This document shows, piece by piece, positions 10,004 to 49,273 of a stretch of DNA of 64,000 nt. Under the pieces are notes generated by a model. It saw nothing but the letters and a program-made list of their open reading frames with translations, did no database searches and was not told the origin of the DNA. The DNA comes from Escherichia coli O127:H6 str. E2348/69. GTDB taxonomy: Bacteria; Pseudomonadota; Gammaproteobacteria; Enterobacterales; Enterobacteriaceae. The translations under genes and the position numbers were made by a program. Each line of letters opens with the position of its first letter. Within the stretch, counting starts at the first letter, position 1. The stretch is taken from NCBI RefSeq assembly GCF_000026545.1, contig NC_011601.1. One strand, written 5' to 3'.

Positions 10004-12826
10004 TTACAGCATCGGCTTGAGGAAGCGCGCCGTATGCGAAGCTTCGCACTCTGCGACGGTTTCTGGCGTACCGGAGACGAGGATTTCGCCGCCCCCACTG
10101 CCGCCTTCCGGTCCCAGGTCGACAATCCAGTCAGCGGTTTTGATCACGTCGAGATTGTGCTCAATTACCACAATGGTATTGCCCTGATCGCGCAGTTTAT
10201 GCAGTACGTCGAGCAGTTGCTGAATATCGGCGAAGTGCAGACCGGTGGTCGGCTCGTCGAGAATATACAGCGTCTGCCCGGTGCCGCGTTTTGACAGCTC
10301 ACGCGCCAGCTTCACGCGCTGGGCTTCACCACCAGAAAGTGTGGTTGCGGACTGCCCGAGGCGAATGTACGTCAGGCCAACATCCATCAGCGTTTGCAGC
10401 TTACGCGCCAGAGCTGGCACCGCATCAAAGAACTCACGCGCCTCTTCGATGGTCATATCCAGCACTTCGTGGATGGTTTTGCCTTTGTACTTAATCTCCA
10501 GCGTTTCACGGTTATAGCGTTTGCCTTTGCACTGGTCGCACGGTACGTAAATGTCCGGCAGGAAGTGCATCTCCACTTTGATCACGCCGTCGCCCTGACA
10601 GGCCTCGCAGCGTCCGCCACGGACGTTAAAGCTGAAACGTCCTGGCGTATAGCCGCGCGCACGGGATTCCGGTACGCCCGCAAACAGTTCGCGCACAGGT
10701 GTAAACACGCCGGTATAGGTCGCCGGGTTAGAACGAGGAGTACGACCAATTGGGCTTTGGTCGATATCGATCACTTTATCGAAATGCTCCAGTCCCTGAA
10801 TATCGCGATACGGTGCCGGTTCGGCGATGGTCGCACCATTCAACTGGCGTTGGGCAATCGGGAACAGTGTGTCGTTAATCAGCGTGGATTTACCGGAACC
10901 CGAAACCCCAGTAATACAGGTAAACAGACCAACTGGCAGCGTTAGCGTCACATCTTTCAGGTTGTTGCCGCGTGCGCCCGTCAGTTTCAGCACTTTTTCC
11001 GGATTTGCCGGAACGCGTTTCTTCGGCACTTCAATCTTGCGTTTACCGCTCATGTACTGCCCGGTCAACGACTCAGGCACCGCCATAATTGCTTCCAGTG
11101 GACCTTCCGCGACCACTTCACCGCCGTGAACACCCGCACCCGGACCGATATCGATCACATGATCAGCGGCGCGAATCGCGTCTTCGTCGTGCTCCACCAC
11201 AATCACGGTATTACCGAGATCGCGCAGATGGATAAGCGTACCCAACAGGCGCTCGTTATCGCGCTGGTGCAGGCCGATAGACGGCTCATCCAGCACGTAC
11301 ATCACGCCAACCAGGCCTGCACCAATCTGGCTCGCCAGACGAATACGCTGGGCTTCACCGCCGGAAAGTGTCTCTGCCGAGCGGGAAAGTGTCAGGTAAT
11401 TCAGGCCGACGTTAACGAGGAATTTCAGACGATCGCCGATCTCTTTAAGGATTTTTTCTGCAATCTTCGCCCGCTGACCTGCGAGTTTGAGATTGTTGAA
11501 GAATTCCATCGCATGACCGATGCTCATGTCGGAGATGGCGGGCAGCGGCGTATTCTCGACATACACGTGGCGTGCTTCCCGACGCAGACGGGTTCCTTCG
11601 CAGCTGGCGCACGGACGATTGCTGATAAACTTGGCTAATTCTTCACGTACCGCACTGGATTCCGTCTCTTTATAACGGCGCTCCATATTGTGCAGCACGC
11701 CTTCGAACGGATGACGACGAATGGAGGTATCGCCACGATCGTTCATGTATTTGAATTCAATATTTTCTTTGCCAGAACCGTACAACACCACTTTATGCAC
11801 GTTCGCGCTCAGGCTGCCCCACGGCGCTTCGACGTCGAACTTATAGTGATCTGCCAGCGATTTCAGCATCTGGAAATAATAGAAGTTGCGGCGATCCCAG
11901 CCACGGATCGCACCGCCAGCCAGCGACAATTCCGGATTCTGGATCACGCGGTCAGGATCGAAATATTGCTGTACGCCAAGACCGTCACAGGTCGGGCAGG
12001 CTCCCGCCGGGTTGTTAAATGAAAACAGGCGAGGTTCCAGCTCGCGCATACTGTAACCGCAAATCGGGCAGGCAAAGTTGGCGGAGAACAGCAGCTCTTC
12101 CGCTTTCGGGTCGTCCATATCCGCCACTACCGCGGTACCACCGGAAAGCTCCAGCGCGGTTTCAAACGACTCGGCAAGACGTTGGGTAAGATCGTCACGC
12201 ACTTTGAAGCGATCAACCACCACTTCAATGGTATGTTTCTTTTGCAGTTCCAGTTTCGGCGGATCGGAAAGATCGCAGACTTCGCCATCAATACGAGCAC
12301 GGATGTAACCCTGGCTTGCCAGGTTCTCCAGCGTTTTGGTGTGTTCGCCTTTGCGCTCTTTAATGATTGGCGCGAGCAGCATCAGACGCTTGCCTTCCGG
12401 CTGGGACAACACGTTATCCACCATCTGACTGACGGTTTGCGCCGCCAGCGGTACATCGTGGTCCGGGCAGCGTGGCTCACCAACGCGAGCGTACAGCAGA
12501 CGCAAATAGTCGTGGATTTCGGTGATTGTCCCCACCGTAGAGCGCGGGTTATGAGACGTCGATTTCTGCTCAATTGAGATGGCAGGAGAAAGCCCTTCAA
12601 TATGGTCGACGTCCGGCTTCTCCATCAGTGACAGAAACTGCCGCGCGTAGGCGGAAAGGGATTCAACGTAACGGCGCTGCCCTTCGGCATATAAGGTGTC
12701 GAAAGCGAGCGAGGATTTGCCAGAACCCGAAAGCCCGGTCACGACAATAAGCTTGTCGCGGGGGATAACGAGGTTGATGTTTTTGAGATTATGGGTGCGG
12801 GCGCCCCGAACTTCGATCTTATCCAT
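10004..12826 (-). CDS. uvrA: Excinuclease ABC subunit A (UvrA)
   Basis: 940 aa; N-terminus [19 protein letters not shown]; two ABC ATPase modules and zinc-finger cysteines. Confidence 0.97.
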
Positions 12827-13080: not shown

Positions 13081-13617
13081 ATGGCCAGCAGAGGCGTAAA
13101 CAAGGTTATTCTCGTTGGTAATCTGGGTCAGGACCCGGAAGTACGCTACATGCCAAATGGTGGCGCAGTTGCCAACATTACGCTGGCTACTTCCGAATCC
13201 TGGCGTGATAAAGCGACCGGCGAGATGAAAGAGCAGACTGAATGGCACCGCGTTGTGCTGTTCGGCAAACTGGCAGAAGTGGCCAGCGAATATCTGCGTA
13301 AAGGTTCTCAGGTTTATATCGAAGGCCAGCTGCGTACCCGCAAATGGACCGATCAATCCGGTCAGGATCGCTACACCACAGAAGTCGTGGTGAACGTTGG
13401 CGGCACCATGCAGATGTTGGGTGGTCGTCAGGGTGGTGGCGCTCCTGCAGGTGGCAATATCGGTGGTGGTCAGCCGCAGGGCGGTTGGGGTCAGCCTCAG
13501 CAGCCGCAGGGTGGCAATCAGTTCAGCGGCGGCGCGCAGTCTCGCCCGCAGCAGTCCGCTCCGGCAGCGCCGTCTAACGAGCCGCCGATGGACTTTGATG
13601 ACGATATTCCGTTCTGA
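13081..13617 (+). CDS. ssb: Single-stranded DNA-binding protein SSB
   Basis: 178 aa; [28 protein letters not shown]... with Gly/Gln-rich tail and C-terminal DFDDDIPF. Confidence 0.97.
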
Positions 13618-13680
13618 TTTGTCATTAAAACAATAGGTTATATTGTTTTAAGGTGGATGATTAAAGCATCTGCCAGCCAT

Positions 13681-13712
13681 AAAAAAGAAGCCTCCGTTAT
13701 GGAGGCTTCTAC
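13681..13712. terminator. Terminator hairpin between convergent ssb and yjcB
   Basis: Hairpin GAAGCCTCC-GTTAT-GGAGGCTTC flanked by A-run. Confidence 0.5.
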
Positions 13713-13715
13713 ATA

Positions 13716-13997
13716 TCAAGTCAAAATCATTGGCCATTGTGGCGGTGTCTGATTCATCTCTTCTACCATCACCGACTCGATGTTGTGCCAGATGGCGGTG
13801 ATATCCGCCATTGTGATGCCAAGCAACCCCATTGCGAACCAGCAGGCGGAAACTACGCCTAGACCGCTGCTGATCACTGCAAGCCCGACATAATCAGCCC
13901 GACGAAAACGGATGTTGAGCGTGCTAGCCAGAAACATCATTACGGCACTAAGAAGTTGCCAGCGAAGAAGAACCACGCCAGTGGTGAGGGTAGCCAT
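13716..13997 (-). CDS. yjcB: Small inner-membrane protein YjcB
   Basis: 93 aa from MATLTTGVVLLRW; hydrophobic; K-12 position; longer track ORF rejected. Confidence 0.7.
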   Translation of the reverse strand: MATLTTGVVLLRWQLLSAVMMFLASTLNIRFRRADYVGLAVISSGLGVVSACWFAMGLLGITMADITAIWHNIESVMVEEMNQTPPQWPMILT

Positions 13998-14425
13998 CAA
14001 ACAATTCCTCGGAAAAGAGCTGATGCCCTGGACAGCGCGGCGTTGTTCACGGGAGGCGTGATACACTCTGGCTATCGCGGGGCTTGCAGAACACAAAAAT
14101 GAAACACTCTGTTTGTTTCATGAATTTTGTGAACTATATCACAATTGGTTGTTTGTTAGCCAGATTAGGCCGTGACTTTTATTGCCGTACAGATTATGTG
14201 TTTTTTCAGCGGCATTAAGGGTATATCTTTCCGCCGCCTCTGCATTCCTGAAGGTGATTAATTTTTAAGATCAATGAATTATCGTCATCCTGGTGACGAT
14301 TAAAAAGGTCTCAATTTTATATCAGGCAAAAGTGCTATTTATACCGTAAGATTTATCTAAAGACGTCGGTAGCCAGGGTTTCACCTTGCAATAACCGGGT
14401 ATAAACAGGCAGGGAATTGATAGCA

Positions 14426-15979
14426 ATGAGTCATCGTGCACGACACCAATTACTGGCGTTTCCGGGCATTATCTTTTTAGTTCTCTTTCCCATCATTCTG
14501 TCGCTATGGATTGCCTTCTTTTGGGCAAAATCAGAAGTGAATAATCAGCTCCGAATCTTTGCTCAGCTGGCGTTGGATAAATCTGAGCTGGTCATTCGTC
14601 AGGCAGATTTAGTGAGCGATGCAGCTGAACGCTATCAGGGGCAAGTTTGCACTCCAGCCCATCAAAAGCGAATGTTGAATATTATTCGTGGCTATCTTTA
14701 TATTAATGAATTGATTTATGCTCGTGATAACCATTTTTTATGCTCATCGCTGATAGCGTCTGTAAATGGCTATACGATTGCACCGGCCGATTATAAGCGC
14801 GAACCTAACGTTTCTATCTATTATTACCGTGATACGCCTTTTTTCTCTGGCTATAAAATGACCTACATGCAGCGGGGAAATTATGTGGCGGTTATCAACC
14901 CTCTCTTCTGGAGTGAAGTGATGTCTGATGATCCGACATTGCAATGGGGTGTGTATGATACGGTGACGAAAACCTTTTTCTCGTTAAGCAACGAGGCCTC
15001 GGCAGCAACGTTTTCTCCGCTGATTCATTTGAATGATTTAACCGTACAACGAAATGGCTATTTATATGCGACAGTTTATTCGACAAAACGCCCAATTGCA
15101 GCCATTGTTGCGACTTCATATCAACGTCTTATAACTCATTTTTATAATCATCTTATTTTTGCGTTGCCCGCCGGTATTTTGGGGAGTCTTGTTCTGCTAT
15201 TACTCTGGCTACGTATTCGACAAAACTATTTGTCTCCCAAACGCAAATTGCAACGCGCCCTCGAAAAACATCAACTTTGCCTTTATTACCAGCCAATAAT
15301 CGATATCAAAACAGAAAAATGTATCGGCGCTGAAGCGTTGTTACGTTGGCCTGGTGAGCAGGGGCAAGTAATGAATCCGGCAGAGTTTATTCCGCTGGCA
15401 GAAAAGGAGGGGATGATCGAACAGGTAACTGATTATGTTATTGATAATGTCTTCCGTGATTTGGGCGCGTATCTGGCAACACATACCGATCGCTATGTTT
15501 CTATTAACCTGTCAGCCTCCGATTTTCATACCTCACGGTTGATAGCGCGAACCAATCAGAAAACAGAGCAACATGCGGTGCGCCCGCAGCAAATTAAATT
15601 TGAAGTGACTGAACATGCATTTCTTGATGTCGACAAAATGACGCCGATTATTCTGGCTTTCCGCAAGGCCGGTTACGAAGTGGCAATTGATGATTTTGGT
15701 ATTGGCTACTCTAACTTGCATAACCTTAAATCATTGAATGTCGATATTTTGAAAATCGATAAATCGTTTGTTGAGACGCTGACCACCCACAAAACCAGTC
15801 ATTTGATTGCGGAACACATCATCGAGCTGGCGCACAGCCTGGGATTAAAAACGATCGCTGAAGGTGTCGAAACTGAGGCGCAGGTTAACTGGCTGCGCAA
15901 ACACGGCGTGCGCTATTGCCAGGGATGGTTTTTTGCGAAGGCGATGCCGCCGCAGGTGTTTATGCAATGGATGGGGTAA
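14426..15979 (+). CDS. pdeC: Cyclic-di-GMP phosphodiesterase PdeC (CSS sensory domain + EAL)
   Basis: About 517 aa from ATG 14426 (track start 14417 is a TTG); N-terminal TM, periplasmic CSS region, second TM, C-terminal EAL domain; exact C-terminus not verified against K-12. Confidence 0.85.
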
Positions 15980-16014: not shown

Positions 16015-16338
16015 CTACAGGCGGTGGCGATAATCGCTGGGAGTGCGATCAAACTGCCGACGGAAAACGCGGGAGAAGGTCTGCTGAGAGACATAACCCA
16101 GGTCCATTGCGATATCAAAAATCGGACGCTCGGTGGTGCGCAACTCAACGGCGGCCAGTAACAGACGGCGCTGGCGAATGTAATCGCCAAGCGTCTGATG
16201 CGTCACCGTGCGGAACATCCGTTGCAAGTACCACTTTGAATAGCCAGATTTTTTTGCGACGACATCAATGTTAAGCGGCTGGTCAATATGCTCGTCAATC
16301 CATGCGATAAGATCCTGAATAATTTTCTGATGGGACAT
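16015..16338 (-). CDS. soxS: Superoxide-response transcriptional activator SoxS (AraC family)
   Basis: 107 aa; MSHQKIIQDLIAWIDEHIDQPLNIDVVAKKSGYSKWYLQRMF... Confidence 0.97.
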   Translation of the reverse strand: MSHQKIIQDLIAWIDEHIDQPLNIDVVAKKSGYSKWYLQRMFRTVTHQTLGDYIRQRRLLLAAVELRTTERPIFDIAMDLGYVSQQTFSRVFRRQFDRTPSDYRHRL

Positions 16339-47015: not shown

Positions 47016-49001
47016 TTAATTTGGGGTTACGATATTCACCCACAAATCGAAATTATCCAGACAGGCGATAATTTCTTCCAGTTTCGCGCCATTGCCAATA
47101 ATTTTGGCTTTCTTCGCTTTCACCAGATCGGCCATTTTTGCCTGTCCGGTCAGCACGGCGTGCAGATCTTCACGGCTGATGTAGAAAGAGGCGTCAGCTT
47201 GCGGTTGCAGTGTTTTACGGTAGTTAAGCACGCTATTGTTGAGTGAGAGGTTCAGGTTATCGTTGTCAGAGAGATTGAAGTTCAGGCTGATGGATTTGCC
47301 CGCGGCTTTCTCACTGTCCAGACGAACAGCCATGTAATCAAACAGCATCTCGACAGTCATACTCTTGATAGTGTCAGGAGAGGCGGTGCTGGCGTGTTCG
47401 ATTTTCTTCACGCCCTCACGAAGTTCTTTCGCTCCCGTCAGGTAGAAGCCGCGCCAGGTCGCTGATTCGGCCTGATAACCCAGTTGTTCGAAGGTATCGG
47501 CCTGTAGGTTTTTCGCCACCTGGTCTCCCGGATTGGCAGCAATCACCTGTTTCAGCAGTTCAGAGGCCCAGCGGTAGTCGCCCTGGTTATAGGCTTCACG
47601 CGCCAGATTGATAGCATGTGCGGAACCTCCCAGCGCTTTGACATAACGTTTACCCATATCGACCTGGCCATACGGATTCAGGTTTGCTGGGTTACCGTCG
47701 TAGTAGCCGAGGTAAAAGTTATATACCGCGCGAGCGTTATGACTGACGGAGCCATAATAGCCATGGCTGGCCCAGTTTTTATCCAGCGTTTCCGGCAGAT
47801 GAATCATGTTGCCGATTTCATTCATGGTGTAACCCTGGTTCGCCAGGTGCAGGGTTTGGTCGTGAATATACCTGATGGTGTCGCGATATTTTCCAATATA
47901 ATCATTGATATGCTGATTACCCCAGACCGGCCAGGTGTGCGGCATAAACAGTACTTCTGCTTGTGATCCCCACTTATCCAGCGTTTCGTTTAGGTAATTG
48001 GTCCACTTCGCGGTATCGCGGGTTTTCGCGCCACGCAGGGTGTAGAAGTTATGCAGGGTATGGGTGCTGTTTTCCGCTGTGCACAGGGCTTTCAACGCCG
48101 GAATATAGAGGTGCATTTCAGACGGCGCTTCGCTGCCTGGAGCCATCAGGAATTCGAAATCCAGCCCGTCGATATTGAGTTTCTCACCTGTCTTGGTGAT
48201 AGATCGCGTCGGCGCGATAATTGTCGGGTCGCCGGTAGTAAGCGTAACACCCAGCCCGTTGCCGATATCTCCCTGTGCATTATGCGGGAGTAGCAGGCCG
48301 TAAGAGTAAAATGCACGGCGACTCATGATATTACCCGCCAGCACGTTTTCACTGATGGCTTCGTCCATAAAGCCTGCCGGGGCGATGATCTGCACTTTGC
48401 CTGCTTTTACATCGGCTTCTGAGATAATACCTTTTACGCCGCCATAGTGGTCAGTGTGGCTGTGGGTGTAGATAACGGCCACAATCGGTTTTTGTGGGCG
48501 GTGTTTGAAATAGAGATTAAGGCTGGCTTTTGCTGCATTTGGCGTCACCAGCGGGTCAATGACGATGATGCCCGTATCACCTTCAATGAAGGTGATGTTC
48601 GAGATATCCTGGCTGCGCACCTGATACATGCGGTCGGTGACTTTAAACAGACCGGAGATGCCGTTTATCTGCGACTGACGCCACAGGCTGGGGTTTACGG
48701 TTTCCGGCGCAGCGGCATTAATATCAAATTTGTAATCGTCCGCGCGGTAGTAAACTTTACCGTTCGCATCACGCAGAATACCTTCATCCAGCAGCGGAGC
48801 GATAAATCCACGCTGCGCATCGTCAAAATCCTGACGATCGCTAAACGGTAATGATTTGGCGTAATTCTGATTAACCTGTTGGGTATATTGAGTGGCGGCT
48901 TTCGCTTCATCTGTTGCGTAAGCGGTATTTATCATCATGCCGCTGGCGGCAGTGAACGCAATAACAATCCTGCTCAAACGGAATAACCGAGAGTTATTCA
49001 T
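47016..49001 (-). CDS. yjcS: Metallo-beta-lactamase-fold alkyl/aryl sulfatase YjcS
   Basis: About 661 aa; signal peptide; HSHTDHYGG metal-binding motif. Confidence 0.9.
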
Positions 49002-49273
49002 ATAAATCTCCATTTATCATTTATGTCGTAAATATGTAATCCATGCAAAATACGTCATTTAAAGCTGGCGTTATCATAATTGGGAATTTGCGAATTTAAT
49101 AAGTGGAAGTGTGAGCGGAACGATCCATTTCATTAGGTATTTGTGCTGAAGAGGGAAAATTGCAGTAGAACTATCATTTCTGGGAATAATATGGGCTGTT
49201 TTATGTAACTATTATATATATTGTACCTGTCGTTGGCACCGCGAGACATTGCGCTACTGTGCCAACGCTTTAC

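Follow-up and report, generated by a model that had tools for sequence, protein, structure and literature searches.

The question raised by this locus is whether a short perfect palindrome, located in the spacer between the divergent genes yjcB and pdeC of Escherichia coli O127:H6 str. E2348/69 (an EPEC strain of E. coli phylogroup B2), is a regulator site or a product of chance, both possibilities having been left standing by the initial annotation. The window (the whole stretch of DNA that was analysed) is 64,000 nucleotides long, and its genes near the palindrome, taken from the list of open reading frames together with the K-12 annotation and, for yjcB and pdeC, from RefSeq annotation on identical DNA (100% match over 13700-14700), are the following:

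10004-12826, minus strand, uvrA
13081-13617, plus strand, ssb
13716-13997, minus strand, yjcB
14426-14428, plus strand, ATG start codon of pdeC
16015-16338, minus strand, soxS
from 16424, plus strand, soxR

The palindrome is flanked by yjcB and pdeC, whose divergent spacer measures 428 bp, and pdeC has been reported to be sigma-S dependent (PMC5897775). On the other side of yjcB, the ssb-yjcB junction (13617-13716) is a reported integration hotspot with an 18-kb defence island (PMC11728103); in E2348/69 this gap is only 98 bp long and consists of the convergent terminator region alone, with weak sub-threshold Rfam matches.

The palindrome itself occupies 14281-14300 and reads ATCGTCATCCTGGTGACGAT, i.e. 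ATCGTCA-TCCTGG-TGACGAT, with two arms of 7 nt that are 100% complementary and 6 nt between them:

14281-14287, left arm ATCGTCA, in which the CG at 14283-14284 are B2-specific derived bases
14288-14293, palindrome spacer TCCTGG, including CCTGG at 14289-14293
14294-14300, right arm TGACGAT, general in E. coli

If one T/G mismatch is permitted, the arms lengthen inward to 9 bp and 2 nt remain between them. Both the sequence and a repeat search bear out the 7-bp arms originally described, and the placement about 125 bp upstream of the pdeC start in the yjcB-pdeC divergent region was also correct (125 nt lie between the palindrome and the ATG). Such a structure is nevertheless statistically unremarkable, because about a quarter of random spacers of this length and composition contain one: 24.8% of randomised 428-bp spacers had one or more perfect 7-bp inverted repeats (spacer 0-10). 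Across the 64-kb window, distinct repeats of this kind number 68, compared with about 41 in first-order Markov random sequences.

The reading that best accounts for this locus, and that is considered likely, is that the B2 lineage perfected an old quasi-palindrome lying in an unconstrained AT-rich stretch, and that the result is probably non-functional. One rival to it is a B2-lineage operator: a dimeric helix-turn-helix regulator would bind the palindrome and, in B2 strains alone, alter transcription of pdeC or yjcB, control of the c-di-GMP phosphodiesterase pdeC having been rewired in this lineage. The perfect dyad symmetry, with its 7-bp arms and 6-bp spacer, does have the size of a dimer-bound operator, but the chance expectation for such a repeat is high, and given this and the evidence below an operator is judged unlikely.

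Conservation, which the initial annotation had proposed as a check, speaks against a regulator site, since the perfect palindrome is degraded in K-12 and absent from other Escherichia species. Specifically, a 40-base query centred on the palindrome was searched against 5424 E. coli records, and the exact 40-mer was present in 1039 of them (19%), the remainder comprising one record with one mismatch, 92 at 90-95% identity and 4292 at 80-90%. Records that do not hold the exact 40-mer are K-12-like or more degraded; the K-12 version is ATTTTCATCCAGGTGACGAT (ATTTTCA...TGACGAT), with 5/7 arm pairs, and most strains share these arms; further strains carry ATTTTTATTCAGGTGACGAT or ATTTTTATTCAGGTGACCAT. 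Besides the B2 and K-12 types, a third haplotype occurs in isolate 23S01245-7. Over the 106 bases round the palindrome the B2-type haplotype is just 88.7% identical to that of most E. coli, and among 5425 records there was no haplotype at 90-95% identity over these bases. The identity across the 1039 records says nothing for or against function, because shared descent explains it. The 40- and 106-base queries each matched a median of one place per genome, and not the many copies of a dispersed intergenic repeat (REP/BIME, ERIC etc.), which is accordingly rejected.

The comparison was widened by a genome scan with PdeC, which gave 35 loci. At the corresponding 20 bases, E. albertii, E. whittamii, Escherichia sp. 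E1V33 and SCPM-O-B-8794 have ATTTTTATTAAAACAACGAT or close variants of it, which form no palindrome, the right arm in these other Escherichia species being CAACGAT, CAACAAT or CAATAAT. Column counts within the genus, based on six Escherichia sequences, are as follows:

14281-14300, palindrome, 8 of 20 columns invariant
whole yjcB-pdeC spacer, 66% of columns invariant
14304-14360, block directly downstream of the palindrome, 52 of 57 columns invariant
14124-14160, CRP-type site and yjcB promoter, 33 of 37 columns invariant

The palindrome belongs to the AT-rich part of the spacer that varies most (30% GC over 14260-14339), and its two half-sites are not both conserved in orthologous regulatory regions. 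A site conserved in one lineage only fits poorly with the operator described above.

A few of the loci deserve comment in their own right. SCPM-O-B-8794 (NZ_JAATUR010000012.1) is labelled E. coli, but for its PdeC the identity is 87%, and the spacer clusters with those of E. whittamii and Escherichia sp. E1V33, so that, judging from the sequence, it is probably a member of a cryptic Escherichia clade. An assembly named 'Flavobacterium paronense CECT 8460' includes a 9.5-kb contig (NZ_JAUFQN010000013.1) with a K-12-like E. coli ssb-yjcB-pdeC arrangement, in which PdeC has 98% identity and the spacer equals that of K-12 save for a 1-nt deletion; this contig is almost certainly E. coli contamination. 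Three loci of Citrobacter spp. carry insertions of 150-260 bp, rich in inverted repeats (e.g. GGGACATTCATGTCCC), between an upstream box (discussed below) and the pdeC start, and these insertions look like small mobile or REP-like elements.

Beyond the genus, alignment to Citrobacter, Salmonella, Enterobacter and Silvania is gap-rich at the palindrome, and pairwise alignments against the same genera place the right arm in an Escherichia-specific insertion. Deep homology can therefore be claimed for the left half at most, and for the palindrome as such there is none. This leads to a second rival, which confines function to the left half: in Escherichia, ATTATCGTCATCC would be what is left of an older upstream box still present in Citrobacter, Enterobacter and Silvania, and the palindrome that it forms with the right arm would be incidental. 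The older box may serve pdeC as a site for a metal regulator (Fur-like) or for some other factor. Indeed, pairwise alignments lay ATTATCGTCATCC onto ATTATCACCATCCTG in C. amalonaticus, TATCATCATCC in Citrobacter sp. FP75 and ATTATCGTCAT in Enterobacter, and a box ATTATC(R)NCAT(CC) is found at about -146 to -155 from the pdeC ATG in all three genera. In Citrobacter the box agrees with the Fur consensus at 14-15 of the 19 positions, a score of at least 14 being reached in only 1.9% of shuffles of the E2348/69 spacer, and because the C at arm position 3 is constant in the Citrobacter/Enterobacter/Silvania box, the B2 change recreates an ancestral-looking state, a point against the non-functional reading. 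However, the MAFFT and pairwise alignments disagree in this gap-rich region, and in the E. coli spacer no Fur match exceeds 11/19, the median score of shuffles and thus chance level, so a Fur box in E. coli is rejected. Moreover, the C(G/A) core has been lost from most E. coli strains and from all other Escherichia species, which means that the box has not been maintained in Escherichia. A role for the left half alone is thus held to be improbable, to about the same degree as an operator.

Searches for functional signatures at the palindrome point the same way. No match at E<=1 was obtained with the covariance models of Rfam 15 over 14000-14430, weak sub-threshold matches being confined to 13632-13731; consensus scans for terminators and sigma-70 promoters made no call at the palindrome; and no ORF of at least 20 aa runs across it. 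Compared by eye, the arms do not fit the CRP, FNR or marbox consensus, and scoring against Fur and IHF consensus sequences likewise gave no fit, which weighs against an operator for these regulators. An IHF core, ATCAANNNNTTR, does abut the left arm at 14270-14281, but such cores are not distinctive here (9 matches in the window against 5.4 expected), and it was set aside.

A third possibility is that the palindrome acts as an RNA hairpin, carried either by an extended pdeC leader or by a yjcB-side transcript (antisense or upstream), and so affects stability or translation. The predicted fold reaches -8.6 kcal/mol for the plus strand and -7.8 kcal/mol for the minus strand. In Klebsiella pneumoniae, the activity of a yjcC reporter depended on DNA some 400 bp ahead of the start codon (PMC3720812), a hint that a promoter may lie far upstream. 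On the other hand, the z-scores are just -1.8 (plus) and -1.6 (minus), the hairpin is lost in the K-12 version (-2.2 kcal/mol, z +1.1), other Escherichia species do not have it, and no Rfam family was matched. As an intrinsic terminator it can be rejected: the stem has just three G-C pairs, the bases that follow (TAAAAAGG on the plus strand and AATTCATT on the minus strand) form a T-run on neither strand, so that the hairpin would have no U-tract, and the terminator scan made no call. Altogether, an RNA role is regarded as very unlikely, the least probable of the readings weighed here.

Promoter mapping was the other check that had been proposed, and it bears on the yjcB side, where the sole mapped start in the spacer lies. 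The primary yjcB TSS is at K-12 position 4275169 on the minus strand (PMC12987492), which corresponds to 14125 in the window, and the predicted yjcB promoter (Shimada et al., PMC3946193) has its -10 element, TATAGT, at 14138-14133 and its -35 element, CTAACA, at 14159-14154. The centre of the palindrome (14290.5) is 165 bp upstream of this TSS. The spacer is already known to bind MarA, SoxS and H-NS, a point in favour of an operator; yjcB has also been reported as a SoxS ChIP-exo target. The MarA ChIP-seq site, gcaataaaagtcacg (PMC5684230), is found as its reverse complement at 14171-14185, its centre being 53 bp upstream of the yjcB TSS; the palindrome is outside it, some 100 bp beyond. Across Escherichia, 8 of the 15 columns of the MarA site are invariant. 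With the exact form in 19% of E. coli records and outside the mapped yjcB start, the chance half of the original alternative, 'regulator site or chance', gains support, and the regulator half is left with no positive support, though for B2 strains it keeps a small probability.

On the pdeC side, the predicted promoter TTTTCA-16-TATAAA (PMC3946193) appears in E2348/69 as GTTTCA at 14378-14383 and TATAAA at 14400-14405, which puts the palindrome near -121. A pdeC TSS was sought in the supplements of PMC3415461, PMC3923258, PMC12987492 and PMC5684230, and these had no entry for yjcC, yjcB or pdeC. The conserved block at 14304-14360 could hold another, putative promoter; were this at about 14333-14345, the palindrome would lie near -55, a normal activator position, and this would count against the view that it has no function. 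The block deserves attention independently of the palindrome, just downstream of which it lies. It is 57 bp long and reads AAAGGTATCAATTTCAAATCAGGCAAAAGTGCTATTTATACCGTAAGATTTATCTAA in K-12; its AAAAGT..GCTA..GATT.AT pattern is recognisable in Citrobacter, Salmonella and Enterobacter, and in Salmonella it reads TTGACC-16-TAATAT with a TG extension. From these resemblances the block may be the real pdeC promoter region, for which it is a candidate.

Other elements of the spacer are observations separate from the palindrome. A perfect CRP-type site, TGTGAACTATATCACA, is present at 14128-14143, centred at -10.5 of the mapped yjcB TSS and overlapping the -10 element, and it is invariant in 21 enterobacterial spacers, bar one spacer base in Salmonella. 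It had been predicted as a CRP site by PhyloScan (PMC1794230) and was named an 'Fnr box' in the K. pneumoniae yjcC paper (PMC3720812). A further palindrome, ATGAAACA-N7-TGTTTCAT, occupies 14099-14121, which are bases +5 to +27 of the yjcB leader. Across 18 sequences (five genera) its arms are nearly invariant and its loop is variable, and in Citrobacter and Enterobacter it becomes ATGAAACAtTGTTTCt. The latter resembles KdgR-type half-sites. As a candidate operator or hairpin, this leader palindrome is far better than the one at 14281-14300. The yjcB leader as a whole (13998-14125, minus strand, 128 nt) is highly conserved from Escherichia to Silvania and is deleted in Enterobacter; covariation within it was uninformative (2 of 19 pairs compensatory, covariation term -0.39). 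In addition, the reading frame is open upstream of the annotated yjcB ATG, up to 14096.

A numerical argument for function comes from elsewhere in the window. A second ATCGTCA-N6-TGACGAT, identical in its arms and spacing, is found at 48819-48838, 34.5 kb from the pdeC palindrome, and the 64-kb window contains 106 arm-and-spacer classes, of which this is the sole class with two copies. From 7-mer counts about 0.001 pairs would be expected at N6 spacing, a figure that counts against the non-functional reading; the second copy is also a point for an operator. The second copy, however, is coding sequence: it lies inside yjcS (alkyl sulfatase; minus strand, 47016-49013), where it codes for DRQDFDD. 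It is common to most E. coli, and in some strains its arms become GTCGTCA or TGGCGAT through changes at synonymous positions that are not compensated in the other arm; it is therefore unlikely to point to a regulon. Each arm is a codon word of the Asp-Asp type (GACGAT), and the window shows an about three-fold enrichment of sites that have three mismatches to ATCGTCA-N6-TGACGAT. The second copy is thus read here as a coincidence helped by codon composition, although an unusual one.

The origin of the perfect form was approached through a comparison of haplotypes. Positions 14283-14284 are TT in K-12, in the other E. coli haplotypes and in all four other Escherichia, and CG in the B2 type only; C14283 and G14284 pair exactly with G14298 and C14297 of the right arm. 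The ancestral repeat was imperfect and the derived bases are the complement of the other arm, as is characteristic of quasi-palindrome correction. For none of the four conceivable single-step intermediates (ATTGTCA or ATCTTCA, in a B2 or K-12 setting) did the 5424 records contain an exact 40-mer, which agrees with the template-switch pattern; a long unsampled branch would equally produce this outcome. We infer the following course. The ancestral E. coli state would have been the quasi-palindrome ATTTTCA-N6-TGACGAT, with 5/7 pairs, which most strains retain; in the B2-type lineage the adjacent TT would have changed to CG together, as the exact complement of the opposite arm, yielding a perfect repeat; and the most likely source would be template-switch correction of the quasi-palindrome during replication, or else plain drift in a segment with a dozen substitutions. 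Two independent point mutations on a long branch could also have turned TT into CG. It has been reported that E. coli quasi-palindromes mutate towards perfect repeats via template switching (PMC7202029), and perfect short inverted repeats in proteobacteria have been proposed to be maintained by the same process (PMC5941160).

The change did not occur in isolation, and two features of its surroundings are relevant:

14251-14320, fast-evolving AT-rich segment holding the palindrome (about 30% GC), with 12 differences between E2348/69 and K-12 in 70 bp
14262-14268 and 14300-14306, second B2-specific 7-bp inverted repeat, TTTTTAA/TTAAAAA, perfect in B2 and 5/7 in K-12

At least nine of the 12 differences look derived on the B2 side, three of them (14310, 14318 and 14320) falling inside the otherwise genus-invariant block; the interval 14156-14355 has 18 differences between E2348/69 and K-12, the background divergence across 4.5 kb being 2.8%. 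The cluster may reflect import, clustered mutation or selection, and it can be taken in favour of an operator. In a broader form, it would mean that B2 E. coli rewired the pdeC/yjcB control region through a burst of at least nine derived substitutions in 70 bp, with the palindrome as a new binding site or hairpin, a scenario that seems improbable, slightly more so than an operator considered by itself. Were it true, the new site would alter expression of a redox-controlled c-di-GMP phosphodiesterase in B2, a group that includes many extra-intestinal pathogens as well as EPEC E2348/69, and c-di-GMP turnover (biofilm versus motility) would be subject to lineage-specific regulation in B2 pathogens.

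The second inverted repeat, which abuts the right arm of the palindrome, offers a way of asking how readily such repeats are perfected. When 13 random substitutions were placed on the K-12 background, about 18% of trials yielded one or more perfect 7-bp repeats and 1.5% yielded two or more; B2 has two (this being a post hoc test). A probability of about 0.015 points to a non-random process, which template switching fits as well as selection does, and the two perfect repeats in B2 fit a mutational bias towards perfecting repeats. A direct repeat (14246-14261 versus 14288-14303, 42 bp apart) was also considered and rejected, the B2 gain in similarity being not significant (P about 0.16).

The palindrome spacer also contains a Dcm-type CCWGG site. 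At 14289-14293 it is CCTGG in B2 and CCAGG in K-12, and it is absent in other Escherichia; further CCWGG sites are present in the yjcB-pdeC spacer. In a dcm mutant, yjcB was listed as weakly up (PMC11741368), and Dcm-DNA crosslinks are reported to stimulate template switching (PMC6357072). A link between the Dcm-type site in the palindrome spacer and template switching is speculative.

In practical terms, the palindrome matters little as it stands, and annotating it as a regulator site is not warranted. It exemplifies how a short perfect palindrome within a promoter region can fail a conservation test, and it is a small natural illustration of the passage from a quasi-palindrome to a perfect repeat. 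The same comparative alignment marks the parts of the spacer that are constrained, namely the CRP-type site, the palindrome of the yjcB leader and the 57-bp block at 14304-14360.

Three classes of known systems come closest to the pdeC palindrome. Like Rho-independent terminators it is a short inverted repeat able to form a stem-loop, but unlike them it sits between two divergent gene starts. Palindromic dimer operators, such as that of CRP (TGTGA-N6-TCACA), have the same format of 7-bp arms and 6-bp spacer over some 20 bp in a divergent promoter region; here, however, the half-site is CGTCA instead of TGTGA, FNR, Fur and MarA are also unmatched, and, unlike the CRP-type site 150 bp away (14128-14143), the palindrome is not conserved in orthologous spacers. 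The third class is that of quasi-palindrome template-switch mutations (the Ripley model, with the E. coli thyA hotspot and the lacZ reporters of the Lovett laboratory). The pdeC case differs from the latter systems in being deduced from natural variation and not observed as a mutational event, and a single template-switch event leaves unexplained ten further substitutions within these 70 bp. It nevertheless shares with this class an imperfect ancestral inverted repeat and, as in the Ripley model, a multi-base change that is limited to the mismatched positions and complements the other arm (PMC7202029).
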